Of a DNA stretch of 64,000 nt, positions 17,276 to 55,455 are shown piece after piece. Numbering within the stretch: position 1 is the stretch's first letter; the number at the start of each line of letters is the position of its first letter. The stretch is from the NCBI GenBank assembly GCA_030704615.1, contig CM060734.1, positions 32,674,001 through 32,738,000 of the forward strand, read 5' to 3'. A program made the translations under genes and the position numbers. This DNA is from Takakia lepidozioides. Its lineage: Eukaryota > Plantae > Bryophyta. A model generated the notes under the pieces. It had not been told where the DNA came from. It worked only from the letters and a program-made list of their open reading frames with translations, and did not search any database.

Positions 17276-17393
17276 TGATTTGGTGTCCGCCAGACTTATG
17301 CTTCCTGGCCCCAGCCGAATAGAGAGAACGCTGCCCCAACAATTGTAGATTCCGCTTCGCTTATTTGAAGACGATGCTTGGCAAAATCTTATC

Positions 17394-30547: not shown

Positions 30548-30620
30548 TGGGGACATCAACCTTGGAGCGTGGGGGAGGAAATGCATGCTTAGCCCGGCTT
30601 AGCTAGCTTAGGAATCCGAG

Positions 30621-33600
30621 TGCAGCTCTGACAATGTCGCCATGGACCTCTTTCGCCCTTTTCCGGAGCTGCTAGGCTTGCACACGCATCGCAAATGCAC
30701 TCAAATGTGATGTGGTTGGGCTTCACCCCTTCCCCATCATTTGATTATAGGTCTCCAAAGCCTTCATACCACGTCTTTGTTGTGCATACCCTGCAAGCAT
30801 CGTCTTCCATGACACCACATCTCGTTCAGCCATAGTGTTGAAAACTCCCTTCGCATCCTTAATGCACCCACATTTGGCATATATGTCCACCAGGGCAGTG
30901 TTCAGAATGACATCTGGTACAATTCCAGCTTTGACGATGTCACCATGGACCTCTTTCCCCTTTTCTAGAGCTCCCAGGTTTGACATGTTGAGGAGAAAAA
31001 CACTTGGCGTGAATCCACTTTGGATAATGTGAGTGTGCACCTGCTTTCCAGCTTCCAGACCTTTCATCTTGATGCACTTAAGCAAGAGACAGACAAACGT
31101 ATCTGAATCTACTGAAATGCCTCCTACGTTTGGCATACATGTCCACGAGGGTATTGTTCAGAATCACATCTGGTACAATTCATGCTTTCGCGATGCAACC
31201 ATGCACCTCTTTGCCCTTTTCCAGGGCTGCCAGACTTGCAAATGCATAGACGTGATGTGGTCGGGCTTCACCCCTTCCACCATCATTTACTCATAGGTCT
31301 CCAAAGCCTCCATCCCACGCCCCTGTTGTGCATAAGCATGGCGTTCCGCGGCACCACATTTCATTCAGCCACATTGTTGAACACTGTTATCTGTTTTTGG
31401 ATATTTTCTTGCTGCCACATTGGTAGTTACTTGTCAAAGTCATTCCACCCAGACAATCTTCTCAGCTCAGCATGGATTTCCTTAATTTTGGGATGCAACT
31501 TGTCATCTACAACGAAGGTGTGCACCCTGTTGCCAACCTCAATGTAGCAGCGACTTGGCTCCTGGCTCCTTTCTACCCCCTCTGACCGTGATCATTCTTC
31601 TCACCTTTGCAGTATCATCCCACCTACCAGCTGCGGCATAGATGTTTGATAGCAACACATAAGTCACGCCATCTCCACATTGTCATGGATTCTGCAGGCA
31701 CCAAGCAAGGCCTTCCACACCACAACATCTGGATTTCAGTAGGCCAGTGTGGCTGCATGCAGAGAAAATACATATAAAGGTGATATTGTCCGGCTTCAAG
31801 CCGTTCTTTCGTATTCCTTCAAATAGTTGCAGGACCTTGACAACCATGCTGGGCATATCGTGCGATCATCGCATTCCACGACACCACATTTCATTCAGCC
31901 ACATTGTCAAAGACTCCCTTTGCTCGACCACTCATGCATACATCCTTGCTTTGTTGCTAGCAGCCGACAATGACAACCTAGATTTGTTCTAGGAAACACC
32001 CAACTCAACTTATCATACTAGTTCCTATGCTCAATTGCATCTGCTACTCTCTGTTATCCAACAGGCATTTACCTTTTTGCCTCGATTGTCCCACCATTAA
32101 CAAGGGTCAGATAAGTATTCATTCCACAGCTTCTCCTCGCCTGAGTAAAAATTGGCGATCCAAAAGCCTTGTCTTCAGGCTGCAACCTGCATAGGCCTTG
32201 TATTCTTTTTTACCATCACAGACAAGGTCCATGCGAGGACTCCACATATGCAGACTACCATTTTCTGCACCTGATCCAGAGTACGCAACACAAAATGTGT
32301 CAGAAGCATATCCTCTCTTTCATCCCCTTCCGCAATGTTTCAAGATTGGAAAGATCTCCTCTGTTTGTGGTGTGATCTATATCCAGCTTCGCCCTGCCAC
32401 CTTTTTCAGACTTCTATCCTCCATCAATTTTCTGGTCTTTTCTAGATTGTCCACATCTGAGTTGCAGCATAGATATTTGACAGCAACATATACACTGAGG
32501 GGAGGCGAGAGTGGTTGAGCCACCATCTTTCAAGAAATAACCCCAACTACAAGGGAGAAGCAGTAGAAGCATCAACATGCGTCCTAGGATGCATTCAACT
32601 AGCTCCTGTTGCTGTAATTATGGAAGCATCAAACACTCTCCGCGCATCCACCACGCTTCCACACCTGGCATACATGTTGACAAAGGCATTCCCTAAACAG
32701 ACAATTGCCTCAACTCCACCTTCTGTGATGTGGGCATGTACACGCCTGTCCTGTTCCGGTGTTGCTGGCCGGTGCAGGCATTGAGGATGGTAACAAATGT
32801 GAGCTTGTCAGGCTTCATACCTACTCGTTGCATTTGCCAGAAGAGTTCAAATGCCTCTTCACTGCACCCTTGCTGAATGTATCCTGCAATCATTGCATTC
32901 CATGAAACCACATCTTGTTCAGGCATCTCGGCATGCATCCACCAGACTCCCACACTTGACATACATGCTGAGAAGGGTGTTTCCCACACGGACATCTGAC
33001 TCAAAGCCAGCTTCAATGATATGGGCATGGACCATCACGCCTTCTAGTTGCATTTGCCAAAAGAGCTGAAATGCATCTTCCATGAGCATTCCATGAAATC
33101 ACATCTCGCCTAGACATTTTCAAACATCTTTCGCGCATCCACCAAACTCCCACACTTGGCATACATATGGACAAGGCTAGTTCCTACATAAACATCTGAT
33201 TCAAATCCAGCTCTGACAATGTGGGCATGAAGCCCTTGCCCTGCCTAGAGCTGCTGGGCTGACACACCTTTTGAGGATGCAAATGAGAGTGACCTTGTCG
33301 GACTCTACACCTTCTTGTGGCATTTGCCCAAAGAGTTCAAATGCCTCTTCACCATGCCCTTGCTCAGTACATCCTGCAATTATTGCAGTCCAAGAGACCA
33401 TGTCTCATTTCGGCATTTTGGCATCAAATGCCAAAATCCATGCCTTTGCGCAAATCATGCATTCATCTTTTCCCTTGCTGCTAGCAGCTGACAATGACAA
33501 CCTAGGAAACACCCAATCACACTAGTTCCTATGCTGAATTGCGTATGTTACTCTCTGTCATCTAACAAGGATTCAATTTTTTGCCTCGGTTGTCCCACCA

Positions 33601-34865
33601 TTGACTAGTGTCAACAAAGTATTCATTCCACACCTTCTCTCTGTTACCTGTTTTCGGATACTTTCATGTTATCACATTGGCAGTATCATGTTAAAGTCAC
33701 TCCAAACCAGATTCACTCAACTAGCTAACTTGCAGAATTCAACATGGAAATTTAGGGCCGACTCTGACAAGAGGGAAAAACAGGGTGAAATGTGTTGAAG
33801 AAGGTGCCTGAACATTAGCGGTGCCTTGTTCTATCATTTGTGCCGCTGCCGTTGCTGTTTCTAGTTGACCATCTACCCAACGACCTAACATGCAGAATTC
33901 AATATGCATCTCAGGGCCGAGTCTGATGAGAGGGCAAAACAGGCTGAAATAGGTCGAAGAAGGCGCCCTCACCACATTGAGTCCTTGAAAATTCAATATG
34001 CATCTCAGGTCCGAGTCTGATGAGAGGGAAAAATAGGCTGAAATAGGTCGAAGAAGAAGGTGCCCTCACCACATTGTCCTTGACCTTGTGGCATGATCCA
34101 TGGAGGATCAACACGGTGCAGCTGAGCAGGCATATATTGAAACACAACCTGCTAAGACCGAGCTGACTCTCCCAAGAACCTTGTAAACATAATCAGGAAG
34201 AATATCAAATCATGGTACTTACAGGAGCCAAGAGCCCACATGTGCAGGATGGACAAACTTCTTCACATCGTACATTAAGAAAAAGCCACACCTTGCGATT
34301 GAGGTTGTCCCACCATCGTGAGTGACATATGAATGACATATGGTACAATTCCAGCTTTGACGTTGTCACCATGGACCTCTTTCCCCTTTTCCAGAGCTCC
34401 CAGGCTTGCACACGCATTGCAAACACAAACAAATCTGATGTGGTTGGGCTTCACCCCTTTGCGCAGAATCTGCTCATAGGTCTCAAAAGCATTCCTACCA
34501 CACCCATGCTTGGTAAATCCTGCCAACATTATATTCCACGTGATCAAGGTCGTTGAGGCATTCTGTTGAATGCTTGGTGAGCATCCATGATGCTCCCGCC
34601 CTTAACGTACATGTGACAAGGATGTTGAATAGAAAACCATTTGGCGTGAATCCACTTTGGATAATGTGCGTGTGCACCTGCTTTCCGACTTCCAGACCTT
34701 TCATCTTGATGCACTTAAGCAAGAGACAGACATAGGTATCTGAATGCCTCCTTGGTTTAAAGTCCGTAGAGCCTCTGTCAGTTTGTTTGCCTCACAAAGC
34801 ATCTTCACATGCACAGAAGTACTAAAAGAGGCATTGTGGACTCCCTCTCTCAATCCTCTTCAGAA
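30621..34865 (-). pseudogene. Mosaic of PLS PPR fragments from at least two subfamilies, with E-region remnants and PDF-motif modules
   Basis: ORFs 30723..31136, 32693..33028, 33201..33401 and 34275..34722. KKVAGRSWI (PG-box-like) near 32390. Confidence 0.8.
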
Positions 34866-35825
34866 GCTCGAGCACGCGGGGGCATCCCTTCCCCGCACTG
34901 CTTTTCGGGCATTTCGGGCAGGTTCCAAAGAAATTGACGACGACGATGACGTGTCTACGATGACCTGGCTACGATGACATGTCTACGATGATGTGGCGAC
35001 AAAACGTGGCAACGATGACGTGGCACTATGGCACCCTATTCATGCTCTACGCTAAACTAGCTTCCGACCCTCAATCGTCGCTAGAACTAGGGCTTCGCGT
35101 TGCTCCGCACTACTAGCGACGAATTCTGAGAACTACGTTCAATTTTTCACAAAAAATGGGTGAGTCATCCCCACGGTGTTACATGCAGAGATCATGTTTT
35201 TTGTTTTTTTCTGGAAGATTTCTGGAAGAAAAATGGTGGATCTGCATTTCAATGTTCAATTTTCACAAGCCGCATACCCAAATACCCTTACATTCACTAT
35301 ATGAACTTTCAAGCATCCACCATGGGATTGGATCTTGGTGGGTTAACGCTAGCTTTTGACAATATTCATGCAAGTTCGTCAAGGGCTCCATCCAAATCCA
35401 CACCACGAGAAACAAACAAATATGTCCAAATTTAAGATGCTGAACAAACTTGTGCACAGGGCTGCCCCTCTCATCAAGCTCATTAAAATTCGTATTCACT
35501 TCCATCTTCAAGCTTTGGACAAGCTCCACCACCCAAACCCAGAGTTAGGATAGTACTTTGATTTCCATCCACTGTCACCAGAATCAGTCAAAAATCACGT
35601 GCACTTGTGGGCGGGTTTCCCACCTATGCCGGGTAGACCCCACTATCAGGAAATGGTGGATGGTCTGAGTAGCTACACAGATCAATGAATGAAGCAAGAC
35701 ACTTGCATCTTGCACACTCAACAGTACATGATGGTCAGTACTCTCAGGAAATGGTGGATGATCTGAGTAGCTTCACAGATCAATAAATGAAGCAAGACAC
35801 TAGCATCTTTCCAAGAAAAATCCTT

Positions 35826-38215
35826 TCACCAGTAATCACCACAAGAACAAATCCCATCTTCAAAGTGGTGGAAAGTAGTTAGCGTCCCATACAACAATTG
35901 CTCGGCCAACAATCTTTGAGATGAATTTGGTGGAGGTGTGGCACTCTCCACACACTCGAAGATTCTGGATGAGTCGTGCTGATCAGCCCAAAACCAATGG
36001 CCAGCTTCTCACGATGGTGGCAAAGAGAAAATTCCTTTCCTCCATATCATGCAATAAAGAGCGTGTGTCAGGCACATACCCCGCCTCCTTCATCTGTTAT
36101 GAGACCCTCTGGTACAAGTGGGTCAGGGTAACAAGAGCAAGACTAACACTGGTAATAGGTATGAAGCTGCGTAACATCTTCAAAGTGGTGGAAAGTAGTT
36201 AGCGTCCCATACAACAATTGCTCGGCCAACAATCTTTGAGATGAATTTGGTGGAGGTGTGGCAGTCTCTACACCCTCGAAGATTCTTGATGAGTCGTGCT
36301 GATCAGCCCAAAACCAATGGCCAGCTTCTCACTGTGGTGGCAAAGTGAAAATTCCTTTCCTCTATATCATGCAATAAAGAGCGTGTGTCAGGCACATACC
36401 CCGCCTCCTTCATGTGCCCATACAATCTTCTCAGCTCAGCATGGATTTCCTTGATTCTGGGATGCAACTTGACATCTGGCTCCTTTCTAACCCCTGACCT
36501 TCATCATTCTTCTCACCTTTGCAGTATCATCCCACCTGCCAGCTGCAGCATAGATGTTTGATATAGCAACACATAAGTCGCGACATCCTGCTCATCCCAC
36601 TTGAAGATAGATGTTGCCACAACCATCTCCACATTGTCGGCATGCCATGGATTCCGCAGGCACCAAGCAAGGCCTTCCAGACCACAACATATTGGATTGA
36701 TTGGCATTTTATTAATCAGGTCCACTGCCTCATGTAGTTGGCCCGCGCGTCCAGAAGGTCCACCATGAAGCCAAAGTGCTTTATTGGCGGGGCACTGACA
36801 CCATGATCTTGACTCAGGAAATCGAAGTAGCGTCTTCCTTCATTGAGTAGGTCAGTGTGGCTGCATGCAAAGAGAACACATATAAAGGTGATACTGATGT
36901 GGTTCCACGTCACCCCTTCCCCCATCATATGCTCATAGGTCTCCAAGGCCTCCATCCTACGCCCCTGTTGTGCATATCCTGCAAGCATGGCGTTCCATGA
37001 CACCAAATCTCGTTCAGCCATACTGTTGAACACTCCTTCCGCATCCTCAATGCTCCCACATTTGGCATACATGTCCACGAGTGTATTTTTTAGAATCACA
37101 TCTGGTACAATTCCAGCTTTGGCGACGCAACCATGCACCTCTTTGCCCTTTTCCAGGGCTGCCAGGCTTGTACACGCCTTGCAAACGCACACAAACGTGA
37201 TGTGGTTGGGCCTCACCCCTTCCCCCATCATTTGCTCATAGGTCTCCAAAGCCTCCATCCCACGCCCCTGCTATGCATACCCCTACAAGCATTGCGTTCC
37301 ACGACACCACATCTCGTTCAGCCATAGTGTTGAAATTAACTCCCTTTGCATCCTTAATGCACCCACATTTGGCATACATGTCCACCAGGGCCGTGTTCAG
37401 GATGACATCTGGTACAATTGCAGCTTTGACGATGTCACCATGGACCTCTTTCCCTTTTTCCAGAGCTCCCAGGCTTGCACACGCATTGCAAACACAAACA
37501 AATGTGATGTGGTTGGTTTTCCCCCCTTCGCACATCATTTGCTCATAGGTCTCCAAAGCCTCCATCCCGCACCCTTGCTGTGCATATCTTGCAATCATCA
37601 CACTCCACGACACCACATCACGTTCAGCCATATTGTCCAATACTCCATTTGCATCCTCGATGCACCTACATTTGACATACATGTCCACTAGGGCAATGTT
37701 CATAATGACATCGGGTACAATTCCAGATTTGAGAATGTCACCATGGACCTCTTTGCACTTTTCCAGGGCTGTCAGGCTTGCACACACATTGCAAATGCAA
37801 ACAAACGTCATGTGGTTGGGCTTCACCCCCTTCGCACATCATTTGCTCATAGGTCTCCAAAGCCTCCATCCCGCGCCCTTGCTATGCATATCCTGCAATC
37901 ATCGCACTCCACGACACCACATCTCGTCCAGCCATACTGTCAAACACTCCCTTCATATATGTCCACGAGGGACATTTGGAACAACTGCAGCTCTGACCAT
38001 GTCGCCATGGACGTCTTTGCCCTTTTCCAGAGCTGCCAGGCTTGCACACGCATTGCAAATGCACAGAAACGCGATGTGGTCGGGCTTCACCCCTTCCCTC
38101 ATCATTTGATCATAGGTCTCCAAAGCCTCCATACCACGTCCCTACTGTGGATACCCTGCAAGCATCGTGTTCCATGACACCACATCTCGTTCAGCCATAG
38201 TGTTGAAAACTCCCT
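35826..38215 (-). pseudogene. PLS-E-DYW RNA-editing factor pseudogene with a tandemly duplicated DYW domain
   Basis: PPR array at 36716-38215. MKEAGYVPDT...H(S/R)EKLA...NLRVC..CH...FHHFEDG is present twice (~36177-36412 and ~35857-36092). The final copy ends CSCGDYW* at 35826. Confidence 0.9.
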
Positions 38216-40364
38216 TCGCAATTTTGGTATCCAGGTAGAAAACTCGCCCTTGAGACTAGCACAATTGAAATTCATTGAGACCAAAAAGGTGAAGAATCTC
38301 ACTCTATCACGCCCTAGTGCTCCATAGTGTTGCAATCCATTGCAGGAACCATCCTGCAGAATCAAGAAAGCCTTGACAATGAGCTATCTTTATTCCCTCC
38401 CAGAATAGTCTGGCTTAGGATGAGGATATCGTCGATACAACCCCTATTTCTCTGGAAGCCTGCCTGACCTTCACTGACTGTGAGAGAATGTACTCATAAG
38501 ACGTTGTTTGTCGTAGCCTTGTGGCCATTGACCCCGAGCCCAGTTTGAGCAGAAACCAAAGGGACAGAATCTACCTCTGTCAGGGGCTGACATTGGTAGT
38601 AAGACTTACCTTTATACATAGAATAGCCCAAATTTGTTCTAGCAAACACCCCAACCCTACTCATCACACACTAGTTCCGCTGCTGAATTGCTCCCAAGAC
38701 ATAATGTGCTGAAGAGAGAGAGGATGACAATTTCCAGCAAAGATTTGCAGTGCATCTTGTTGTCTGCTTCTCTCTGTAAGCTAACAGGCACTCACCCTTT
38801 TGCCTCAATTGTCCCACCATTGCCCATAGTACATTCGTTTCTGCTGAATTGCGCAACACAATTCCGAGCCTGGATCCGACGGCGCATTCATTCAATACAG
38901 CAAATGTACAACCTGGGAAATTCCATGGAACTCCTGGAGCTTATGAAGACACAATTCCGACCCCCATTTAATCCATGAAACACCGCACTTGAGCTTGAGC
39001 TCAAGAAGTCATTTTTGGTTTTTTCGGGCATTCCGGACAGATTCCAAAAAAATTGACGACGACGATGACGTATCTACGAAACGTGGCGACGATGACGTGG
39101 CACTATGGCACCCTATTTCTGCTCTACACTAAACTAGCTTCCGACCTTCAGTCGTCGTTAGAATTTATCCTAACATACAGGTTCGCAAGTGAGAGGGGAG
39201 CAGCGGGAGGTGGGGATTTGACAGCGCGCCTTGCCGGAACGTCACCGGTATGGCCATCCCCGGCGACCGTACTGGCAAGGCTCCCACGTGTGCATTCAAC
39301 TCGTCAGGTAAGCGTAGTCTTCTCCAATAACTTGTAAGGGCTTTTTGCCCCCCAAAAATATTTCATAATAAAATTAATCCGGGCTACAATCCCCCCGTCA
39401 TAATAATAAAACCAAATGAAAAATAAATCATATGATACTAATGTCCGATCCATCGGAAAACAAATATGAAACCATGACATTAAATGAAAATCCAAACAAT
39501 CTGAAATCCAAACCAATTGAAAATAAAAAAGATATCATAGAAACAACATTCATAATCCAAATCTGCTTGCCATCGTGTGAAAATGAGCCCCACAGTCATT
39601 ACACCGATCAAATGAATATGGAATAAAATCAATGTTTGTCTTTTCATAAAACTTGAATATACCAGTGTTGTACTGGTATCAGGTTTAGGACATACCAGTT
39701 GGGTATCTATAATGGTGGAAATGTTTTTCTTATATATATATATATATATATATTATATATTCAGAGAAAGGGGAACAGGGCCCTTTTAATCAAATTAAAA
39801 TAAAAAGTGTCAAAACAAGTAAACTAACCACCCCATCTAACCGTTATGAATATCTGCGGAAATCATTAGTTCCTCTTCCATCCAAAATTCGTTCGGGTAT
39901 AGACTCCTCTCATCCGAAAAAGTTCATTATTGGGTAATATCTTTTGGGATGTTTCAGAGGAATGTCAAGTATGTACAGTTGTACAACGGTGCAGGTGCCG
40001 TTAAATTTGAATGGAAATGGGCATCTCTTCTGGACTCTTTGACATGACAGCCAAATGGCGGCTCTGTCAGTCAACCTCTCAACCAATGCACTGTTGGGGC
40101 ACCTGTGAAATAACAATTGGATTCTTTCATTAGGGTTGACATTATGCACTCCGCAGTTGGGCACTCTGTCACCATCCGCTTGGTTCGCACAGGGACACAT
40201 TTCTTTGATGTGCCAACCCGCGTTAGGAGATCTGCAAGTAGGACCGATACCTGCAATTGTGTGTAAGGACGTCTTCTATGCAGCCAAAAACTTCGCTCTA
40301 ATACACTCTGCATTCAGAAGCACCATCGGACGGTGAACTCTGCGTTCAGAAGCAACATTGGCAG

Positions 40365-42304
40365 ATGGCCTCCCAGGCCATGGGCTCCCTTGACGCGGAC
40401 TTCTTCAGTGAGGATTACCCTGTGCCATTTTCTTACGAGGCTGGTTTTGTGGTGGTGCATGAACTCGTCCTCGCAACGCAGTTTCGGTTGGAAAATGGAA
40501 CTCTATTCCTTCAGAGGGAAGTGTACGATGCCAATGGAAAACTGCTCAAGTATGCGTTCCAGAAACCTTCGCATACTGCACCAACCACACAATGGAGAGT
40601 GTCTCCAGGCAGATACAGGGTGCTTAGTGCTCCTCTGAGACAGTCTGCAGGATCGTTCGTAACTCCTAGCACGGCAGCATCAGTGGCCCAGGAGAAAACA
40701 CCCGTGGTTGTCAAAAAGGAGACGAGTACCGTTAACACTGTAGTTGAGCTTTTCGACTCATCCTCCGATGACGCATGTGCACTACCGCCCGTGGATCAGC
40801 CATGTCCACATGAAGAAGCAGATGTGGAGGAGATCACTAGTGTCATTCCTAAACTGAAAGCCATGGGTGGGATGGCAGGATTCAAGAGTGAGTTGAGGGG
40901 ATAGACTGGAGCACTTTCAATATTCAGAGGGTGGCATTCTTGCCGGAATCTTTTGATGGTAATACTATTTTCGAGCTGCCTCCTCCTGGTCGCGTGGGGG
41001 GAATTTCCAGTCTCTTGGAAGGAATGGACAAAAAGCACGATGGGCACCCTTGGTGCCGCACAAAAACCTCCAATATTCACAACAACGACAACCTCATATT
41101 TAGGCGAACAGTCTGTAATGGGCACCTGAAATGCGAGAACATGAAATGCAGACACTTCGCATTGTCAGGTGTGCAAAACCAAAGCGAATGGGATGGTGTC
41201 AGTGAGAATCCATTCAAGCCTGGGGTGACACCACCATACAGTAACACTTTTGTGTGCAAGTTCTGTAGGGTACCACCTTGCTGCCTTGCTTTGTGTGGCG
41301 CCAAAATGTATTATGTGGTGCATCGATTCAAAACCCTGACTAGAGCCTGTGTCCATTTCGGTTTTCACAACCACCCTGTGTCCAAGGGGGATTATAGGGA
41401 GAGCGTTGACACAGTCTCGCGTCTGATAAGGCAAGAGTTGGATACCAATCCAACTGGAACCACATCTGCAATTGCCATGGGGGCGAGCAAGTACTTTCTG
41501 GAAAGCCGTATTCTGTGTGCATCAAATTCGGTTGGAGGAATACTGGAGGGACCAGCTTTGGACATTGTTATGGACCATTTCTCCACTTTGACTTCTCCAA
41601 ACATTAGGAATCAGGTGAACGCTTTAAGAATGGGCTCTGGGAGCCGAGGTTATATGGACAATATTATGGATTTGAAGAAAAGGAGCATGTACGACTACAT
41701 CCAAGATAGCGTTTTCCCGGGACAAGGAGCCAGGAAAGTGTTCTTGTTCAAAATGTCCACAAAAGGTGAGGGCAGCGGGGTCAGCTTGGTTAAACGTATG
41801 CAGAAGGGTGGCGATCTTGGCAGCTGCTTCCTTATGTTCGATCACGTCAAGAGGGTTAAAGACTGGACCACAATGGCATGTCATGTTTACGACCCTGTGT
41901 ATCAGCGGGTCATGACAATTGCAGTGTGGGACATGCAGTCAGAGGACACAGATTCACAGCAGCTCATGTGGGAAGCTCTCATTCGTGTTATGGCCTCCAA
42001 TGGTCTCCCATCTCCTAATTTTGTTGGTTTTATGGCCGATAGTGCTCAAGCTAACTTCAACGCTATCCGCATTGTGTTCGGGACAGGAGATCCAAAAGTG
42101 CCAATGCCATTGGACACAATCCCTGGACAAACACACAAAGACATACATCAAGCCAGATATGCAGAGTATGCATCGTCAACTGTGCAAACAGTACAAAGAC
42201 GCCAAAACTATGGGGGAAGCGAATACATTGTTCCAGACAATTCGTGCCTGGTGGTACTCATCTGGAGCGGCATCAAAGGACAGCATGAGGGCACTGGAAG
42301 ACTG
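40365..42304 (+). pseudogene. MULE-like DDE transposase, N-terminal part with a GCM-like zinc domain
   Basis: W...CNGHLKCENMKC, candidate catalytic Asp in LMFDHV and GFMADSA, and a CxHW remnant. Interrupted at ALED|WFAFW by element B copy 2. Confidence 0.72.
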
Positions 42305-42656
42305 TGTCAAGTTAAATAAGCACAGTGTGAAAACAGCTAGAATAAAACTAGTTATTTGTATTTAACACTTGGATTTAGGTCAAGTGTTAAATCAGGTGTC
42401 AAGTTTAGTTTGACACCTGGTCTGTCTTATCTTCACGAGAGCGGCAGTCGCGCGGCTCATCTCTCTCGAGTTGAGCCTGCGCGACCGAGCTCCTTCCTGC
42501 GTTTAGAAGCTGTGTGTGTTTATGATGGGAGTGTAGGTTGTTGTGGGGTGGAGTCCCCATAGCTTGGGGTGCCCCTGGCTCGACTTCTATTTCAAAGAGT
42601 GATGATTTTGGTTTCCATGTTTTGTGTCAACAGTGTGTTAAAGAGTCTTTCTATCA
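42305..42656 (+). repeat. 5' terminal A repeat (352 bp) of element B copy 2
   Basis: Appears identical by eye to 53623-53974; the ORF track gives identical 68-aa translations at 42356 and 53674. Confidence 0.95.
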
Positions 42657-42668
42657 CTCGAGAGAGAT
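42656..42668 (+). promoter_or_regulatory. Candidate self-priming primer-binding site
   Basis: ACTCGAGAGAGAT is the exact reverse complement of 42459-42471 inside A. It is conserved in copy 1, and there is no TGG-type tRNA PBS. Confidence 0.7.
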
Positions 42669-43549
42669 CACCTCTTACCTGTGAGTGCAAGGTAGGAGTT
42701 GAGGGTTAGCACTTGTATGATTACCTGTGTGAGAGTAGTGCTTAGTTTAAGAAGCTTTAAAATATATATATATATATATATATGCAGGTTTCGATCAGCG
42801 TTGGTTCTGGCATAAGGCCGCCGGGCAGGACGGAGCTACACTGCATGGAAGCAGCCTTCGTTTTGGTCAGTGAGGAGATATCATGGTGGAGCAGCAGGAT
42901 GATGCGCAAATGTAAGGAAAACTGTGTCTGTTGGTAGCTACTGACAACCGCAACTCTGTCCCTGGACTTCTTCTCCGGAGGTGGAAGCCTGTGTGCAGCG
43001 TGCATGCAAGAGTGTGGTTGTGACAGGGGAACAAGCGCTTGCGGTTGCATTACTACTGCAAGTTGGGCACTCGGTGCGTCGCTATAACTGCAATTGTACA
43101 GGAGCACTGTGAGAGGCAGATTGTTCTGCAGCCTTGCTATACCTGGTCAGTCCAATGGTGACACATCCATACCTTGTTAAAGCAATATGGACAGTTGTCG
43201 ATGAGGACGGCTCTATGAAGGACACTGCGAGCTAAGAAGGGCTCGGGTACAAAAGCACACACTGGAGCGTTTAAGCAAGTTAGGGCGGGAAAAAGAAAAA
43301 CAGGCCCAAATAGCCAAGCACATGAAGTAGTGAATGTTGATGGAAGAAACCTGTGACACTCCCATTTTGCTGGAGGAGATCGTTGATTAATTGATGTCCC
43401 CGGAGCTTCAGGACAGGCCCTACAATCGCTGGCTAACAAGACTGATTTACAAGCAAAACCTGCAGGGCAATCTGCCGAGAGCCTCATCTGCTTCTCGGAG
43501 GGGTTTCCGTAAGTTCCTTCTTTCCCAGGCCCTTGTGTCGACCTTCTCC

Positions 43550-43935
43550 ATGTTCCTTTGTCTCTCTCACCATCCTGCTGCCTCGGCAAGCTCGCAGTGG
43601 AGACCTGCTTGCGGGCTGTTTTCTGGATTTAGAGTGGGTTTGAAGTATAGAAAAGAACTTGGAGATTACAGTGGGCAGGTCGCAGCCGGTGCGTCCTTGA
43701 CGTGGAAGGCCACAACGGAGAGGAATGTGGTAGCCAGGGCTGCTGGAGATGCCCCAGAGTCAGAGGTCGAGATTGTTCCTGAGGTCACCATCCCAGCCAT
43801 AGTTTCCCCTCAAGTCAAAAAGCATAATTGTTAAAGAAGAAGGCTAAACGATTGGAGCTTCGAAGGAAGAGGCTGGTGCGCAAGCGCAAGTTAAGGAAGA
43901 AAGGCCAATGGCCTCCTTCCAAAATGGCCAAATCA
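43550..43935 (+). pseudogene. PSRP5: Captured plastid-specific ribosomal protein PSRP5 (cL37) coding sequence
   Basis: Transit-peptide-like N-terminus (..VVARAAG), then LKKKAKRLELRRKRLVRKRKLRKKGQWPPSKMAK. One frameshift; no intron visible. Confidence 0.82.
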
Positions 43936-44582
43936 AGAATGTATAGGGCCCAGGAGGGTTCAAGGATAAGAAGAAAAGAAAGTATCACGTCTGCGGGAGG
44001 TCCAACAGGTCCAAGGAGCACACGTACAACACCACAGTAGAACCACAGACATCAAAAAAAAAAAGGGCAGCTCAATTCTCAAACTTCACACACAACAGGT
44101 GTCGCAATCAACGGCCAAGCTCTTGTATGCTCTGCTGCTCTGCTCCTGTTGTGCTGAATGTTGGTGAAGTGAAGCTGTGGTTTCGATGTGGCAGATGTGT
44201 TGTGCAAGTTCCAGCAACCATCCACGAATCGTTCGATTGCAGGCCGCCTGTCCATAAGCCATGAGGGTGTTGCGCAGTGCATCTCTTGATCTGCTCTTGA
44301 AATCGCCCCTACCTGGACGAACTACCTGGATGTGTTGGGAACTCGTAGGTGACTTGGGAGCAGTTATAATGACAAAAGCGTTTTGGTGTTAAAAAAAAAA
44401 AAAAAAGCCTTTTTGATCTAATTTAAATGTTTAAAGAGCCTGGTTGGTCATATCTTTGTCAAATGGACTCCGTTTGACTCAGTTTTTGGGGGAATAGCTG
44501 CAGAAAGGGGAAATCTACCTATCTAGACCTGGTTTCTGTTTTTGGGACTCTGCTAAAAATCTATGGAATTTTTAGAGTGTGA

Positions 44583-45413
44583 GTGTGCCATGAAAGATCC
44601 ACAATCTTGTTTCTAGAACCTGTGCTGGTCTATATGAGAGACAAATCTGTGGATGTACTCCTTGTAGGCTGGGGGAAGGAGGACGAATTGAAGGGCAGGT
44701 CTCTTCTCTTAGCCTGTGCACCAAGGGGACAGGATCTATGTTTCCCCCAAGGCACTCAGACTGATTTGAGTGGAGAACAGTTGTGACGGTGTGATTGCAT
44801 ACTGGGAGTCAGGCCTTATCAGTAGACAACAGACTGCTTCAGTTGGCATTGAGGGCCTCATATCGCCTTGGGCCGTCAGAACTCTGTTGGAGCCAGCAGT
44901 TCTGCAGCTGTAGGTGAAATACCAAAGTGGGTGGAAGCAGGTATGGAACACAGCCCAAGACAGCCCCGGGGACCAAGGTGTTCAGCCACAAGGCCGTGGT
45001 GTACTGGAGCAGAGGAGCAGGATTCGACACAAGTTTTCTGCAATCAGACAGGTTTGCAACCGGATACGCCTGCACCAGGGCAACCACGATCTGGGGTTCA
45101 TCAGCAAACATGTTTGTTGTGCGTGAAGGGAGGCAGTCATTCGCAATGATGACCCCGCAACCGTCTCAAAGCTTTCGAGTTGAAGACTATCAGACCCTAC
45201 CCTTTGTTTTCTTTAGTGTTCAGTGAGCGGGAATAGCAGATGTTGCATTTGTCTCTACCTGGCAGAAAGAGGAGGAGGGTTGGTTAGAGCGAGCTACTGT
45301 AGCTTGGGACAAGGTTAGTGGCAGGTTTCTGGACATAGATATACCTCCTACCCCTTATACCATCATGCAGAGCGAGGCACTATTGAGAGAAGTCTGGCAG
45401 TTGAATAGCATAG
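44583..45413 (+). pseudogene. Extra unknown ORF of element B copy 2 (many indels)
   Basis: Homologous to 15639-16470 minus (QGTQTDLSGEQL, SSSAAVGEIPKWV, DYQTLP). Confidence 0.5.
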
Positions 45414-45938
45414 ATCAGGATTAGATCTTGCTTGGTCGGGCTTTCTATTCTTCCCTCCATCTCTTACTATTTTCATACCTTATACTTGTAGTTGCCAAAG
45501 CCTCTTGGTGGAGGCCAGTCAGTCCGGGGTTTGGGCTGGGATATTCTGCAGGATCACAAGCGTTGCTGCTGGATTTTGGGTGTGGGTGTGTTGATGTTTT
45601 GATTTTCTTGTGTGTTGGATCCCCCCCAACACCTGCATGCTTGACTGTGCGCCATGTTGGTTTTTGTGTGGGCGCTTGTGCTTTCATAGGGATTAGGCCG
45701 GATTTGATCACCGGTCAATCCTAGAGTATGCTGTCGGTGGTGAGGCTGGATGATGACCAGCAAGACCACCAGTGGTTTCTTCTATGGTGAGGCTGGTTTG
45801 ATGACCAGCCAACCATAGGAGTTCTTGCGGTGGATGCAGGTGCAGGTGCCCTGAGCCATTGGGATATGAACCCTTAGACTGCAACAGGTGCCCACCCGTG
45901 TCACTATTAGATTAGGTACTAGAGCCTTATAGTGTCAC

Positions 45939-48895
45939 GTGGAGGAGTGCACATTGTGAGTGTCATTACGGAGTTACCCAAGGGGTTTGGAGGGGAGTAC
46001 GGCCTACAGGCAGTAACAGTGAGAGTGGGTTCACAAGACGAGGTATTCGTTTCAGACCACCTTCACCGCCACCCTCAATTACTGTAGAGTCAGACACAGA
46101 CTCGGAGGCTTCACAACAGGTGTGGCAATTTCCATTCGCCCATTGTGTTGTGGGAAACATGGAGGAGATGTATGGAGCTACCAAGGGCCTCGTAGTACTC
46201 TGGAGCTGTGGGCACAATCGAGTTGGATGACTTTATCCAGGAGATTCGACACTGGTGTGATTTGCAGCAGGATGCCAATCCACATCTATTCACCCATTCA
46301 CCCCATTCATGGCGTGGAACGGGACTGTTCCAGCATTTGGAAGGCCGCCTATGGACGATTACCACGAGTTCAGGCGAGGACATGAAGCAGAGATTGAGGA
46401 GTGGAGTATGTATTGGTCACCTGACTACATCTCCATTACTCGAGGCACGACGCGACCAGTAGCTTGCCTCAGTACCAATAGCTCCCACTGCCAGCACTAG
46501 TAGTGGAGCAAGTAGTGCGTGGTACTTCTGCAGGTGTACCAGTTCAGAAGTGCTACTACTCTCCTCCCTGCCACAGACTACAACACATGTGCCTAGATTC
46601 AACCCGGTGGTGGAGTTCTTCCAGGAGTTGCGGAGAACTACCAAGGTGTACGGACAGAGAAGCTGCGAAGTTTGCAAGACTTCCAGCGCAAACCCAGTGA
46701 GAGCCTGCGAGAGGCGTACACTCGTATGAGGCGCTTGATAAGTGTGACCCAAGTTTACTGAAGCTCAGGCAATCCAGTTTTGGTATGGAATTCTGGACAA
46801 GGAGCTCAAGAGAAGGGTGCGAGATGCAACCCTGTTACAAGCAGCCCAACCCACATTTAGCAGATGTGTTTCTGCTGGCTGAGCGATTGAGCTCAACATG
46901 GTGGAGGAGCGAGTTGTTACAATTGGATTGGTAGGACATGCCTGTACTACGGTGCACAGTTGTCAGCCCACAAGCACAAGGACTGCCCAACAGCGTGGTC
47001 AGGGGGCAAGGTTGCCCAGCCCATGGAGCTTACACAGGGGACCTCAGGTGCAGAGGCCCGTGGCAATCTTTGCATGCCAACAGCAACCAGGGGGTGATTG
47101 TTGGACATGGCGGAGGACCCCATGTCAAGAGAGATTGCCCAGAGAGTGGCAGAAGGCCGGCACAAGCACAGCCTGCACAGTTGCAGTGTGGGCATTGTGG
47201 CAAGTATGGGCATGGAGATGCCCAGTGTTATGACTTGCATCCTGAGTTGCGCCCAGGCCAGTTTCCAAGGGAACAATGGTGGCCGGGGGCGAGGTGGACC
47301 AGCCCAAAGAGGACGAGGTGGTCGGGCACGAGGTGCAGGCCAAGGCAACCTCCACATGGCCAAGGACGCGGAGGTCAGGGTGTTGACCAAGGCATGGCCA
47401 ATCGGCTTCAGCAGCTAGAGCAGAGGCTCGCTGCCATGGCTATAGCTCAGGCGGTACCGGCTCCCAGGCGGGATGGCCCACCTCCTGCTCTGAGGGAGGA
47501 GATATGGGCGGAATGGGATTCATGTGCGGAGCAGCACTACCATTAGAGCAGGTGGAGTCTGCTGCAGCCGTGACTCGAGGAGCAACACGAGTTCCTGAGC
47601 CACGAGGTGCAGAGGTGGAGTTGGATCCACAACGTGGGAGGCAAGCCGTCAGGCAAGGCTGCCTCAGTCATTCACCTTGGCGGAGACAGTGTCAACGCCA
47701 TCCATGGCACCTAGTTCTCGCCCGACTGTTACCGAGGCGGAGGTTACTATGCCATTGGGGAGAGCTACCCGTGCAGCACTGACACCTACTACCAGGCTAG
47801 TGCAGCCGGTGTGTTATTGGGAGCAGCCACCTCTGTGTGTCAAGCCCCACTGTTCTCGGCAACCATGATTGCGACGCCGGGAGTGAGACCAGCTGCAGTG
47901 TTCAGACTAGCAGCAACACTCTGCGAGAGTGGAGAGGTCACTTCATCTTCTGCGGAGTTAGTAAAAGGTGTAGTGGCAGAGGGATCCTCGGATTTGAGGG
48001 TCAAGACTGCCACGGCAGCGCCCTGGCAAGCTGCAGCTGCCAGATTGACGGAGCTGCCAGCTAGGCCAGCCTTTGAGCGCGCCATGGTGACACCTGGAGT
48101 TGTCTTGTTAGACAACCAGGGAGGCATTTTCACTTTGAGTGGACCGGCAGGCAAGAAGTACCGGCCACTGCGGGTCTTGTTGGACTCAGGAGCTCAGCCA
48201 CTGATGTTGGGCAGAGCTGCTATTGCAGGTTTGGGCCTCATGGAGGCGGATATGGAGCCTTGTCCTTTCCAGATACAGACATCTCTGGGAGGATCAGAGC
48301 AGGCTCGCGGCATGACACGGCATCAGTTGGCTATTAGACTGCAGCCGGATCATCCTGTAGATGGCTCAGTGATGCGAGCCAAGGCCATTGTGACAGACGC
48401 GGTCTCTTACGATGTCCTCGTTGGTGGGGCAGTGTTATACCCCATGGGCTTCACCCTGGATTTCTGGGAGGAGTCAGCATCCTACAGGCCTGGATGGCAG
48501 TCAGGGGATGGTCGCCGTGCACAGCTCCCTGTGACATTCATTGGGGGTATTGCAGCTGCTCAGCGGGGCAAGATGCCAACACTAGCCGCCTTCACAGCTG
48601 CAGTCAGCTGGCCTGGAGAGTTGCTGGAAGGCAATGCCCATGCAGAGGATGTGCCACCTCCAGCAGAGCAGGATGACATGCATGGTACGGCGGAGTTGCC
48701 TGCCATGGTTGCTCACACTCCGTTGTGGGTACGAGCAAGGATTTGCAGCACGCTGCTGATGGACGGGTGCAACAAGCTTGGTTAGAAGCTTTTGTACCGT
48801 CAGGAGAGGAGGAGAGTGCGGTGATTGTACCAGGGCCACCTCAGTTGTCGCCATTGGACACCACACCTCTTGTGTGGCAGCGACCGGATGAAGGC
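45939..48895 (+). pseudogene. gag: Element B copy 2 gag and protease
   Basis: GTIELDDFIQE, HVKRDC and CGHCGKYGHGDAQC knuckles, and LLDSGA in ORF 47811..48785. Dense indels before 47800. Confidence 0.82.
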
Positions 48896-50142
48896 ATATG
48901 CCTTCTGGACTTATTTGGCGGGATCAGCACTGGATTGGCTGCAGTGCTGCAGGCAGGTGTACGAGTTCGACGTTACCTGTATGTGGAGAGGGATGAGACT
49001 GCACGACGCGTCTCACTGCGCCATGTTGCTCAGATGGTGCAGCAGCATCCTGAGTTGTTGCCGGTGTCTGCAGTTCGTGGATATCAGCAGCCTTGCCAGC
49101 AGACATTGCGTTGCTGGGGGCGCAGGATTTGGAGCGGGTTGGCTCCATTGATCTGGTAGTGGCAGGTTGGCCCTGCCAAGGGCATTCATCAGCCGGGCAT
49201 GGCAATGGATTGCGAGACTCGAGGACGGGTCTGTTTTGGGAGATGGTGCGGATTTTGCGCCACTTGCAGCTTCATCAGGCTGTATCTCCGGCATACATCT
49301 TGGAGAATGTGCCACTGATGGGTGATTCTCGGGCCAGGGTGATGGCCAGTGTGCATCAAGTCCGGTCGTGGCTTGGGTCAGCAGTATTGCTGGATGCAGC
49401 TGCAGTGGGGTCACGGGCTCATCGTCCACGACTATGGTGGACTAACTTGATGCCACCCGCACTGCTCAAGCGTGCATTTGATGGGGTGCAGCGGCCAGCA
49501 CACCTCACCGTGGATGGCATTTTGGACACAGGAAGGCAGTCTCAACGTGTGAGACACGATGACCGTTCGCCTTTGGCAGTGGTCAACAGAGTGGGTCAAC
49601 CACGAGCAGCATTACCTACACTGCTCAGCTTCCCAGGATCCCATGCTTTTCGGGATGGTGGACCTGGCCTCCTGTGGGATGCTCAGTTGCAGCAGTTAGT
49701 GGAGCCTAATGCCGACGAGCGAGAGCGGGCTATGGGGTTTTCCACTGGGACCACGGCGGTGCCTTCTCTTTCTGAGGCATCACGTCGTCAGGTGTTGGGG
49801 CAAGCAATGGATCTCAATTGCTTGACCTGGATTGTCAGCTTGGCTATGGCTGAGCAACGTAGAGTGCGGAGTGCACTTCCCTTGATGGTCTCTCTGCCTA
49901 CCGAGACGGTACAGGCAGCGAGTGGGGGCGAGCCGGTGAGGACCACGAGGTGTAGACATCCATGGCACATGTGGGAGGTGCTCGAGGTTCAGAGGGAGTT
50001 GGCAGCGAAGGCAGCTGTGATGGATGAGGTTGGGGATTCTTCTCGGGATGAGGAGGTTCTCAATGATGAGATGATGGGGCAGGATGAGGCCTTGTCATTG
50101 ACTGAGCAGGAAGGGGGTACTGCTCAAGAGGTTGCAGCATAG
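48896..50142 (+). CDS. DNMT3-like C5 cytosine methyltransferase domain (one apparent frameshift near 49090), ending at a UAG
   Basis: Motifs I (LFGGISTG), II (YVERD), IV (GWPCQG), VI (ENV), VIII (HRPR), IX and X (LGQAM) occur in canonical order in ORFs 48725..49159 and 49093..50142. Confidence 0.92.
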
Positions 50143-53100
50143 CAACCACGGGACGCGTCCTCTACCTCTAAGCCCACTGGACTTAAGGTTGCAGTTACGG
50201 AGGACAATTGGGAGCCTGATATTGGACCCATTGTCACCGGAGGAGAGAGACGACGTATACGGCGGTTCCTGAGGGCTTACAGGAATTGCTTTGCCTTCAG
50301 TTTGAAGGACTTGGGAGCACTGAAGGGTCAAGAGATCCGTATTGAGTTGGCCACTGACACGCCAATCTTTCGGAGACCCTATAGATACAGTGACATGGAG
50401 AGGTCTTTGATTCAGATGAGGACTCAAGATCTCTGGGAGGCAGGTTTGGTGGAGCTCTCTGGTGGAGAGTATGCTTCAGCCACAGTGATGCCAGCTAAGA
50501 AGGATGTCTATGGCAATTGGACGGAGAGACGTATGTGCGGTGATTACCGGCCTGTAAATCGTCAGACCAAGTCCGATAGGTATGCCATGCCAACACCAGA
50601 GGAGATCTTTGATGCCATTGGGCATTCCAAGGTCTTTAGCACGTTGGATTTACGATCCGGATATCACCAGTTGCCGATCAAGGAGGCGGATAAGCAAAAG
50701 ACGGCATTCTGGGGGATCAATGAGCACGGGAAGGATTGCCTATACCAGTGGCGGTTCTTACCATTTGGGCTTAAAAACGCTCCCGCTGAGTTTCAAAGAG
50801 TCATGGACAGGATTCTAGCAGGGGTGGAGTTTGCTCGGTGCTACATAGATGACATCATCATCTTTAGTGCTACGGTGGAGGAGCATGAGAGACACCTTCA
50901 GGGGGTATTTGAGCGCTTGAGGACGCACGGATTGAAGTTACATCCGGGCAAGTGCAAGTTTTTCCACAACCAGATTGAGTATCTGGGTCACATGATATAT
51001 CCTGGAGGATTGGGGGTACAACAGACTAAGGTAGAGTCCATTGCACAGGTTCCACGCCCCACGGATGTGAGCCGAGTTCGAGCTTTCATGGGGTTAGCAA
51101 ACTATTACAGACGGTTTGTTAAGGGATTTAGTGCCATTGCAAAGGCTCTAACCAAGCTGACCAAGGTGGACCAGGAGTGGCAGTGGGAAGATGAGCAAGA
51201 ACAAGCTTTTCAAGAGCTCAAGGCGAGGTTGACCTCGGCGCCCATCTTGAGACGACCTATCAGGGGGCGTCCTTTTCAGCTGCATACAGATTGGAGCATG
51301 CTGGGGCTTGGAGCGGTGCTCACACAGGTGGATGATGAGGGAAGAGAGTTCGTAGTGGCTTATGCTAGCCGCTCGAACAATGCTGCAGAGTCTAAGTATA
51401 GCTCATATGAGGGAGAATGCTTAGCTGCAGTGTGGGCCGTGGCACACTTCAGGTGCTATCTATACGGCAATCTCTTCACCCTTGTCACGGATCACCAACC
51501 ACTCAAGTGGTTGATGGAGTCAGACAAGCTTACGGGGAAGCTTGCACGGTGGGCACTCATCCTTCAAGAGTATGACTTTCAGGTGGTGCATCGACCGGGT
51601 TTGGTCAATCGAAATGCAGATGGGTTGAGTCGCAATCCATGCACGAGCCAGCAGGATGACACTGGAGCTCGGTGGCATGGTGAGACGGACGAGGAGATGG
51701 TGCCCGGATGGCATGCATCTGCATTTCTGTGTATCTTGGCAGCGGAAGGCCAGGTTGGACCTACAACAGGGATGACTGTAGATCAAGTGTCTGAGGACCC
51801 TGAGGCCAGCAATGAGCAGGGTGGCGCCAAAGATATACATGAGGATTCAGTTGTGTTGGACTACCTCCGCAGTGGAGACACGGCAGCCACTATGACTGCC
51901 AAGGAGAGGGATCGGATCCTACAACGAGCCAAGAGGTTCAGGTGGGAGGGGACACACCTGCTCCGAGTGTGGGAGGATGGTCGAGTGAGGATTGTGCCTC
52001 ACCCAACACAGCGGGCACGGTTAGTGCGGCATGCCCATGAGGAGTTGGGGCATTTTGGGGTGCGACGCACTCATAGTCTACTGCAGGGGCAGTATTGGTG
52101 GCGTGGTATGCACACAGAGGTGCAACAATTTGTGGCTAGGTGCATGGTGTGTGACAGGGTGCGTGCTTCATTCAACGCCCCTACTCCACAATTGCACCCT
52201 CTTCCGATCATGGGATTGGGCTACAGGTGGAGTCTTGACTTCGCAGGGCCGTTGCCACTGACCATGCGCCACAACAAGTACGTGTTGGTGATGGTGGAGC
52301 ACTTCTCCAAGTGGATTGAATTGGTTCCATTGCCTGATAAGGCTAGTGAGGGAGCTGCGTATGCATTCCTGGATTGTGTGCTTAGCCGATTCGGTGCTCC
52401 AGCTGAGGTACTCACGGACCAAGGGAGAGAGTTCTTGGGGGAGTTTCAGGCTTTGTGTGACAAGGCCTTGATAGACCACCGCACCACTTCTCGGGATCAT
52501 CCTGAAGCCGATGGCTTGGCAGAGAGAGTTGTTCAGACAGTAAAGAGGGGTTTGCGCAAGTATGGCTTGCAGAAGGGACACCTAGGAGATTGGGACCTTC
52601 AGTTACCCTGGTTAGCCATGGGCTACAGGTTCAGCAAGCAAGCATCACTTGCCTCCTCCTCACCATACTTTCTTCTCTTTGGCCGAGAGCCGGATTTGCC
52701 TACATCCATTCGCAGAGAAGCTGCTACAGTTCTTAACCTTGACGATCCGGACGTGTGGGCACGTGCATGTGAGCAGCGTGCAGAGTTGTTCAAGAGAGTC
52801 ATGCCTATGGCTTTCGAGAACCTTGCCATTGCACAACACCGTGATACGTTGAGGTATGCTACCATACGTGGTGGGGGCTATCGTCCTGGGGTTCGGAGAT
52901 TCAACCCTGGTGACTATGTCTATCTGCAGCAGACTGCTCCTACGACCCTGGATGTGACTGCAGGACGTGTTATTTTGAGGGTTCGAGAGGTCTTGCCCTC
53001 AGGCGTCTTGGTCTTGGAGGGTCGGGATGGCATCACTTGGAAGGACCATGTGCGTAATTGTGCGCCATGTCACCTTCCGAATGTCGATGGCAGGATTGAC

Positions 53101-53277
53101 CCAAACCTGGCAGTGGTATCTGCAGGTTTGAGGTGCATGTTGTGTGGGTCTGCTAAAGGGGCAGCCACCATGCTGGTATGTGATCGGTGCTCTAGAGGTT
53201 GGCATATGGGATGCTTGACTCCACCTCTTGAGATGGTTCCGGATGGGGATTGGTTATGTCCACATTGCATTGGATAG
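50143..53277 (+). CDS. pol: Open RT-RNase H-integrase-PHD polyprotein frame
   Basis: Open from the UAG to 53277. Motifs: RRMCGDYR, LPFGLKNAP, YIDD, HTDWS, HHCC (HEELGH..CMVC), D-D-E (SLDFAG, TDQGREF, GLAERV) and a C-terminal C4HC3 PHD at 53134-53268. Confidence 0.96.
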   Translation, partial: QPRDASSTSKPTGLKVAVTEDNWEPDIGPIVTGGERRRIRRFLRAYRNCFAFSLKDLGALKGQEIRIELATDTPIFRRPYRYSDMERSLIQMRTQDLWEAGLVELSGGEYASATVMPAKKDVYGNWTERRMCGDYRPVNRQTKSDRYAMPTPEEIFDAIGHSKVFSTLDLRSGYHQLPIKEADKQKTAFWGINEHGKDCLYQWRFLPFGLKNAPAEFQRVMDRILAGVEFARCYIDDIIIFSATVEEHERHLQGVFERLRTHGLKLHPGKCKFFHNQIEYLGHMIYPGGLGVQQTKVESIAQVPRPTDVSRVRAFMGLANYYRRFVKGFSAIAKALTKLTKVDQEWQWEDEQEQAFQELKARLTSAPILRRPIRGRPFQLHTDWSMLGLGAVLTQVDDEGREFVVAYASRSNNAAESKYSSYEGECLAAVWAVAHFRCYLYGNLFTLVTDHQPLKWLMESDKLTGKLARWALILQEYDFQVVHRPGLVNRNADGLSRNPCTSQQDDTGARWHGETDEEMVPGWHASAFLCILAAEGQVGPTTGMTVDQVSEDPEASNEQGGAKDIHEDSVVLDYLRSGDTAATMTAKERDRILQRAKRFRWEGTHLLRVWEDGRVRIVPHPTQRARLVRHAHEELGHFGVRRTHSLLQGQYWWRGMHTEVQQFVARCMVCDRVRASFNAPTPQLHPLPIMGLGYRWSLDFAGPLPLTMRHNKYVLVMVEHFSKWIELVPLPDKASEGAAYAFLDCVLSRFGAPAEVLTDQGREFLGEFQALCDKALIDHRTTSRDHPEADGLAERVVQTVKRGLRKYGLQKGHLGDWDLQLPWLAMGYRFSKQASLASSSPYFLLFGREPDLPTSIRREAATVLNLDDPDVWARACEQRAELFKRVMPMAFENLAIAQHRDTLRYATIRGGGYRPGVRRFNPGDYVYLQQTAPTTLDVTAGRVILRVREVLPSGVLVLEGRDGITWKDHVRNCAPCHLPNVDGRIDPNLAVVSAGLRCMLCGSAKGAATMLVCDRCSRGWHMGCLTPPLEMVPDGDWLCPHCIG

Positions 53278-53524
53278 TGGGAGTGGATACAACCATGGGA
53301 GGCTAACAAGAAATGCAAGGCCCAGCTACTAGGAGACCTTGAACACACGAGATCTTGGCTCAAGTTCATAGATTGCAAGACGGCGACTAACGATGGGGCT
53401 ACTCTTGTACCCGGCCTCTTGGTTGATAGAGTTTGAGCTCGATAAAACAGTGATAGAGGACTTAGTACGGCTGTGGCTATTACATCTTGTAGCTATCTGG
53501 AGGTAGGGGACCTATCCACCAGCT

Positions 53525-55273: not shown

Positions 55274-55455
55274 AAATCTGAGTTTTCCTTGACCTAAACT
55301 TGTAATGGAATGACTGTTCAAGTCCAGTGTCTCTCAATGTATGTCGTCTAACATCTTGGCTATGCGTGGGTGAATGCATTTGTCGCATTGGTTTGTCATT
55401 CTTTTTTCATTAGCAAACACAAGAAACTACCTTCAGTTAGACAGAGTATCAAATC

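Follow-up and report, generated by a model that had tools for sequence, protein, structure and literature searches.

The window, a 64-kb stretch of DNA from the land plant Takakia lepidozioides, holds two insertions of one kind of Gypsy element, copy 1 and copy 2. In both, the terminal repeats are split into two blocks, A and B, arranged A-internal-B-A-B. The features that define this layout are as follows.

7043-18897, minus strand: copy 1, laid out as copy 2, with target duplication CATC, primer at 18731-18743, primer binding site (PBS) at 18530-18542, and broken frames
42301-42304, plus strand: left 4-bp target duplication ACTG (right copy at 54061-54064)
42305-54060, plus strand: copy 2, a Gypsy element reading A1-PBS-internal-PPT-B1-GC-A2-B2, with ends TGTC...GACA (from self-BLAST, junction read-out and the empty-site joint)
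42305-42655, plus strand: repeat A1 (promoter part, then R-U5 equivalent), with 0 mismatches to A2
53525-53533, plus strand: polypurine tract (PPT), in front of B1
53534-53620, plus strand: repeat B1
53617-53626, plus strand: palindrome GACA-GC-TGTC at the B1/A2 border, its two halves being both element ends
53623-53973, plus strand: repeat A2, with the duplicate primer (53777-53789) inside a complete hairpin (53765-53803)
53974-54060, plus strand: repeat B2

Copy 2 is young, since A1 equals A2 and B1 equals B2 without differences. Its empty site, the joint from 42300 to 54061, was seen in all four read runs examined, which come from at most three samples; one of these runs possibly stems from the source sample, and the flank possibly exists in several copies. 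An assembly artefact as the cause of the split repeats was ruled out by the two insertions in the window, six further complete layouts from other samples, the end duplications, and the empty site in reads. Between copy 1 and copy 2 the left half of the A repeat is 99% identical and the right half 75%, and the leaders (16720-18529 and 42669-44340, respectively) are unrelated over about 1.7 kb. The 200 nt behind the PBS align at 56%, and the internal alignment returns about 1.7 kb further on. We read the copies as a recombinant pair of subfamilies whose breakpoint directly follows the PBS. Neither copy has uninterrupted frames. The coding content is best seen in copy 2.

47715-48785, plus strand: open reading frame (ORF) with a weak aspartyl protease match (Pfam E 0.015, below cut-off)
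49054-50142, plus strand: C5 cytosine methyltransferase ORF, DNMT3-like (Pfam PF00145, E 3.6e-13), with a stop before the Pol frame in copy 2
50143-53277, plus strand: Pol, with reverse transcriptase (RT), RNase H, zinc finger, DDE integrase and a C-terminal PHD finger

The best solved relatives of the methyltransferase ORF are DNMT3A/B, and in relatives such as P0015 the methyltransferase and Pol form a single ORF. The integrase is of the rve type, with the D, D and E motifs present, and no tyrosine recombinase or phage-integrase domain was found in the ORFs scanned. Pol gave no Chromo or SH3_Tf2-1 match and has the PHD finger in that place, whereas the ORF of the neighbouring element has both domains. 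Close Pol relatives occur in liverworts, Klebsormidium, Closterium and Tetraselmis, the closest named ones being liverwort proteins (77-79%); none were found among viral contigs. A tree of RT-RNase H sequences (42 rows, none dropped, midpoint root, without a Tf1 or Tcn1 row) places the element in a clade of 30 rows (100/100), from which the six plant chromovirus-type rows are separate. A search aimed at Tcn1/Tf1 sequences returned only close relatives of the TGG-type chromovirus.

Copy 1 sits inside that neighbouring chromovirus-type Gypsy element (3124-7042 and 18898 to about 19850, TGG-type PBS at 3851), and a related inverted piece at 28510-30547 carries SH3 and chromo domains. Copy 2 interrupts a long frame (40302-42304 and 54061-55273) whose downstream part encodes a SWIM finger and which may belong to a Mutator-like transposase. 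Positions 1-3100 and 19900-38200 hold a dense PPR-repeat gene cluster in which many frames are broken. Together with the liverwort proteins as nearest named Pol relatives, this cluster indicates a non-seed land plant. Tandem arrays lie at 55451-55786 (42-nt units, containing an inverted repeat) and at 58306-58525 (10-nt units).

Complementarity between the A repeat and the site behind it

Two short stretches of copy 2 are central to the way in which the element may prime its reverse transcription.

42459-42471, plus strand: putative self-primer (ATCTCTCTCGAGT), the first 13 nt of the predicted RNA, proposed from its complement to the PBS, covariation, pairing prediction and TATA-like spacing
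42656-42668, plus strand: PBS, the complement of 42459-42471, without TGG

The two stretches are exact reverse complements over 13 nt, and no extension is possible on either side. Copy 1 has the identical 13-nt pair on the minus strand, at the positions listed above. No TGG stands right behind the A repeat; the first lies 145 nt away in copy 2 and 78 nt away in copy 1. The earlier note had reported the complement, the missing TGG of a tRNA binding site, and the retention of both parts in copy 1 with unrelated sequence downstream, and each observation was borne out. The neighbouring chromodomain Gypsy element, with its TGG-type site at 3851, shows that tRNA-type sites are recognisable in this window. 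The PBS start was placed at 42656 because the A2/B2 joint, described below, ends at the base before the PBS; the A at that position is better taken to open the PBS than to close A1.

A complement of this length is rare by chance. On the plus strand of the window, a 13-mer is matched by its complement within the 352 nt before it at 10 of 63,635 positions; two of these are the element copies, and a single unrelated inverted repeat near 55.6 kb accounts for the other eight. None of 5,000 dinucleotide shuffles of A1 reached a 13-nt complement, the best being 12 nt, once.

Related elements allow a stricter comparison. A scan of metagenome contigs yielded 80 related loci, most of them decayed copies, and 19 A copies with downstream sequence were compared. 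They represent five families including that of the window, numbered here 1 to 5 in the order window, L016, L056, L003 and L033; L003 and L033 read PPT-B-A-PBS and may be collapsed assemblies. The primers are ATCTCTCTCGAGT in the window, AGTTCTTTGAGT in L016, AGTTTTTCTAGA in L056, ATTCTTGTCAAGT in L003 and CTCACTCTCGGAAAGT in L033. The earlier note had suggested looking for covariation of the two 13-mers across subfamilies, and it is found: five families have five different primer/PBS pairs, each of which fits its own repeat only, with 12 of 12 Watson-Crick pairs within a family and 3 to 8 of 12 across families. Even the best match of a PBS anywhere in another family's repeat reaches 6 to 10 of 12. 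Among the 19 A copies, six are perfect over 12 to 16 nt, two have one G:T pair, six have one or two mismatches, and five have lost the primer or the PBS. Such decay is expected, since the loci are old (A1 and A2 are 86 to 92% alike). The 3 to 4 bases behind the PBS have a mean diversity of 0.62 in family 2, against a background maximum of 0.49, and lie within background in family 3; the variable bases of family 2 are a possible footprint of untemplated additions.

Judged by the covariation, by TATA-like spacing in three families and by the A2/B2 joint, the element, which lacks a tRNA binding site, very probably self-primes reverse transcription with its own RNA, the mode of priming that the earlier note had put forward.

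The putative RNA start and the hairpin across it

Three further features bear on where the primer would come from and on how it is folded.

42428-42434, plus strand: site where related families have a TATA-like box, in this copy the degenerate TATCTTC, with a presumed role
42447-42485, plus strand: inverted repeat around the primer, its 5' arm upstream of the putative start
42577-42586, plus strand: stretch conserved in both copies that pairs in the predicted fold with primer nt 10-13 and the following bases, and competes with or stacks on the primer-PBS duplex

A TATA box lies about 30 nt upstream of a transcription start. In families 2, 3 and 4 a TATA-like box stands 29 to 32 nt upstream of the first base of the primer; neither the window's family nor family 5 has a clear TATA box upstream of it. 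The complementarity ends at 12 to 16 nt, where in three families the TATA spacing sets the start. This spacing, together with an A2/B2 joint that falls at the PBS edge, suggests that transcription probably begins within a few bases of 42459, where the earlier note had placed it. Element contigs from two RNA runs (two and one, none over the primer) carry no weight on expression or start.

The earlier note had also proposed that the 13-mer lies mostly in the loop of a hairpin and is displayed there as the primer. The hairpin stem is real by prediction: 42447-42459 and 42472-42485 give a strong fold that none of 200 shuffles equalled (z -3.95; in copy 1, -3.45), and the copies, which differ in the base at the 42454-equivalent positions, both keep a 13-bp stem with one bulge. 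The loop is not open, however, as part of the 13-mer pairs inside it. Significant hairpins cross the putative start in families 1, 2, 4 and 5 (z -2.5 to -4.0), with the primer sitting in the stem in families 2, 4 and 5; family 3 has no hairpin (z +1.1 and +1.4). An RNA starting at 42459 would be without the 5' arm 42447-42458, and the hairpin therefore cannot display a working primer. The arm also abolishes the predicted pairing. When the RNA starts at the primer, predicted primer-PBS pairing is 0.64 to 0.98; with 12 to 30 extra 5' bases it collapses in four of the five families, and with 30 it is at most 0.09 in families 1, 2, 4 and 5 and above 0.9 in family 3. Loop display as the priming state was rejected on these grounds and on its unconserved geometry.

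The complete hairpin can form in A2 (53765-53803). A role in masking the second primer copy held by A2 is more likely for the hairpin than display, though at about even odds; masking would not be required in the lineage as a whole, since family 3 is without the hairpin. Read runs X1 and X5 show no variants at or above 2% in 53773-53812, a weak indication, since equally long variant-free stretches occur elsewhere in A2. In the free fold of the window's family, primer nt 1-9 alone pair with the PBS, and nt 10-13 prefer 42577-42586. The full primer-PBS duplex costs 4.5 to 5.3 kcal/mol more than the free fold because primer nt 10-13 and the following bases (nt 10-19) pair with 42577-42586. Presumably RT or Gag chaperoning would have to resolve this competing fold.

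One contig bears on the length of the priming RNA. In L020 (3361-3878) the right end of an element reads A2, PBS and an inverted copy of the upstream part of the repeat that ends in GACA, followed by flank. The inverted copy runs from the last base of the primer back to the start of the repeat, so that at least 168 nt of upstream repeat are still attached. This right end, from one contig among 80 loci, resembles a relic of cDNA synthesis that ran through a primer still carrying upstream RNA; it has the form that would result had the last base of the primer been joined to the first DNA base. L042 has 5 extra complementary bases. L020 and L042 show that priming RNAs can carry upstream sequence, contrary to a strict 5'-end primer.

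Such observations invite a different source for the primer, one nearest to the idea of loop display: the primer would come from A2 or from an RNA that begins further upstream, with the hairpin as a processing signal, and an RNA cut or ending at the last base of the primer would prime at the PBS with this 3' end. The attached upstream repeat of L020 speaks for this, as do a hairpin that spans the site in four of five families and a window family without a TATA box. However, the complementarity stops after 12 to 16 nt, at the TATA-set start in three families, the hairpin blocks the predicted pairing instead of exposing the primer, its geometry varies among families and it is missing from family 3, and L020 is a single contig among 80 loci. 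We regard a processed primer as unlikely.

A host RNA, either a half-tRNA or another small RNA, might instead prime at this site, with the self-complement a by-product or a structural stem. Half-tRNA priming has been reported for some plant Copia lineages (PMC6317226). ARAGORN found no tRNA in the 64-kb window and none in the 39 of 80 metagenome loci scanned, and an Rfam search over 42250-43000 gave two sub-threshold matches and nothing above threshold. The host-RNA reading is very improbable: there is no TGG after the repeat, and five unrelated PBS sequences match their own repeats at 12 of 12 positions, a joint change of both partners that a host primer would not bring about.

A proposed joining of ends and route from RNA to insertion

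In families 1, 2 and 3 the A2/B2 joint links the base before the PBS directly to the first base after the PPT, and contains nothing of the PBS or the PPT. This exact joint was found in 11 of 16 distinct joints, and the other five show small losses, an insertion or truncation. The exact joint is what would be expected from a linear cDNA bounded by the two primers once its ends are joined; the five imprecise joints fit end joining as well. Six families, represented by 23 rows of which some are repeated assemblies of one locus, share a B/A border of the form GACA-xx-TGTC; its spacer is GC in 12 rows and differs from GC by a transition in 10. The halves of this palindrome recur as the two ends of inserted copies. 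A 4-bp duplication is clear in 9 of 13 loci with both ends, doubtful in one, and was not found in three.

From these observations we propose the following route, in which self-priming with the first 13 bases, a hairpin that masks the 3' duplicate, and the reopening of joined ends together make up what we consider, as a whole, a probable explanation. Transcription would begin at about 42459. Nucleotides 1-13 would then pair with 42656-42668 and, presumably through the RNase H of the element, as in Tf1, be released from the rest of the RNA; the 3' end so formed would prime minus-strand DNA from base 42655. The second primer copy, in A2 of the 3' part of the RNA, would fold with upstream bases that exist only there, and for this reason could not compete for the PBS. 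Plus-strand synthesis starting behind the PPT would give a linear B-A-internal-B-A DNA. Its ends would be joined, forming the A2/B2 joint, and the integrase would open the left B/A palindrome to produce A1-internal-B1-A2-B2 with a 4-bp duplication; we lean slightly towards this last step. If the integrase follows retroviral chemistry, a staggered cut of each strand behind CA would leave two processed ends, each with a 2-nt overhang.

The mirror layout, A-B-A-internal-B, was absent: none of 16 upstream A copies in the window and the loci has a B before it. A symmetric two-repeat circle model also predicts that layout, and the 0 of 16 is left unexplained by that model. Short forms reading A-internal-B, with flank directly after B, were observed in L013 and L016, in which 4-bp duplications were confirmed, and also in L005, L007, L053, L054, L057, L059, L061 and L080. 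They may come from recombination between B1 and B2 or from integration using both palindromes.

That the complement might act in the DNA as an inverted repeat, for the pairing of ends, for recombination or for binding of the integrase, and play no role in priming, is the least credible reading of all: the element ends are unusual, resembling DIRS-order layouts, which use complementary repeats, and deletions of the primer between the hairpin arms in L009 and L042 suggest that the stem forms in DNA, but the site lies exactly at the PBS position, opposite a normal PPT, the A2/B2 joint excludes it to the base, and no alternative primer site is evident.

More broadly, we tentatively envisage, with some doubt, a Gypsy clade of the green lineage that combines self-priming independent of Tf1, a guard hairpin, and joined ends, with a DDE integrase opening the internal GACA-GC-TGTC. 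If true, a substrate of the two-repeat circle junction type would be the normal integration route and no dead end, and the linear cDNA ends would have been abandoned as attachment sites.

Relation to known self-priming and split-repeat elements

Tf1 uses its first 11 bases as primer after RNase H cleavage (PMC7175516). Tf1 priming needs a three-duplex pretzel, and the Tf1/sushi group is a chromovirus sublineage (PMC10085805 and PMC4600332). Like Tf1 and Tf2 of Schizosaccharomyces pombe and the Tf1/sushi group including Tcn1, the element has no tRNA PBS and carries a Gypsy RT, an RNase H and a DDE integrase. As in Tf1, a 5' stretch of the repeat is complementary to a site right behind the repeat (11 nt in Tf1, 12 to 16 nt here). 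Unlike the Tf1/sushi elements, which are chromoviruses with ordinary LTRs, it has a PHD finger and no chromodomain, a DNMT3-like ORF, split repeats, and a hairpin across the putative start. Its duplication is of 4 bp and not of 5 bp as in Tcn1, for which PMC6317226 gives chromodomains and 5-bp duplications in 100%. A search for a pretzel around the PBS detected none: one of 16 flanking-duplex tests, a crude test, gave p<0.05 against shuffles, and one flanking stem appeared in the constrained fold of copy 2. Membership in Tf1/sushi was rejected, given the missing chromodomain, the 4-bp duplication and the split repeats. The parallel with the Tf1 group drawn in the earlier note thus holds for how the element appears to work but not for the features that define that group. 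On present sequence comparisons, it functions like Tf1 and stands outside the sampled chromoviruses, and its self-priming likely arose independently of Tf1.

Self-priming itself is known. In the available part of the plant survey PMC6317226 it dominates only in Tcn1 and in Copia TAR, and among plant Gypsy elements Tcn1 chromoviruses alone are listed; for SM-Tcn1, the accessible text of PMC2864245 reports that no primer evidence was found. A complement of this kind also underlies the self-priming predicted for the TAR/Houba/Osr-1 Copia elements (89% of TAR; PMC6317226), and self-priming therefore arose more than once. They differ from the present element in belonging to the Copia superfamily and in having ordinary LTRs and a 5-bp duplication, as far as that text describes them. 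The non-chromoviruses Phygy and Selgy, with a tRNA-Trp or tRNA-Ala PBS and no extra domain (PMC6317226), were rejected as its group, since it has no TGG site and two extra domains.

The element, from its domains, repeats and tree position, is placed with KnitGypsy-Dnmt3 of Klebsormidium nitens, which has Gypsy domains and which a figure legend in PMC5890265 describes as having repeats arranged as in a DIRS element. The likeness extends to a Gypsy Pol with a Dnmt3-type methyltransferase, DIRS-like A-internal-B-A-B repeats, and a clade shared with K. nitens Pol proteins; the host there is K. nitens, and here it is a land plant. The K. nitens proteins in the 30-row clade are P0060 and P0086. A primer, PBS, target duplication, palindrome or integration model for KnitGypsy-Dnmt3 was not found in the available text of PMC5890265 or in three supplement files. 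No description of priming or integration in this lineage was found in the accessible portions of PMC5890265 or bioRxiv 10.64898/2026.05.21.726589, the two papers on it that a search of openly available literature returned.

The A-internal-B-A-B layout also recalls Ngaro/PAT-type elements of the DIRS order (layout from PMC5890265). Here a DDE integrase, TG...CA ends and a 4-bp duplication are found instead. Membership in DIRS was rejected, with an rve integrase present and no recombinase match; Ngaro/PAT-type elements integrate with a tyrosine recombinase.

New here are the putatively masking hairpin, the covariation over five families, and one fold-back copy. A second origin of self-priming, probably an independent one and built on another RNA architecture, would reveal what this mode of priming minimally requires, and by what means an element whose RNA, like every LTR RNA, holds a duplicate primer escapes mis-priming from it. 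The priming site pins the right cDNA end to a single base, so that the split-repeat layout, previously remarked on only in the figure legend within the accessible literature (PMC5890265), becomes a testable model of a DDE integrase acting at an internal palindrome. Software that searches for LTR elements by paired LTRs and a tRNA site probably overlooks elements of this kind or misplaces their boundaries. A distant Gypsy Pol outside the clade, P0117, combines a Dam adenine methylase with a PHD finger.
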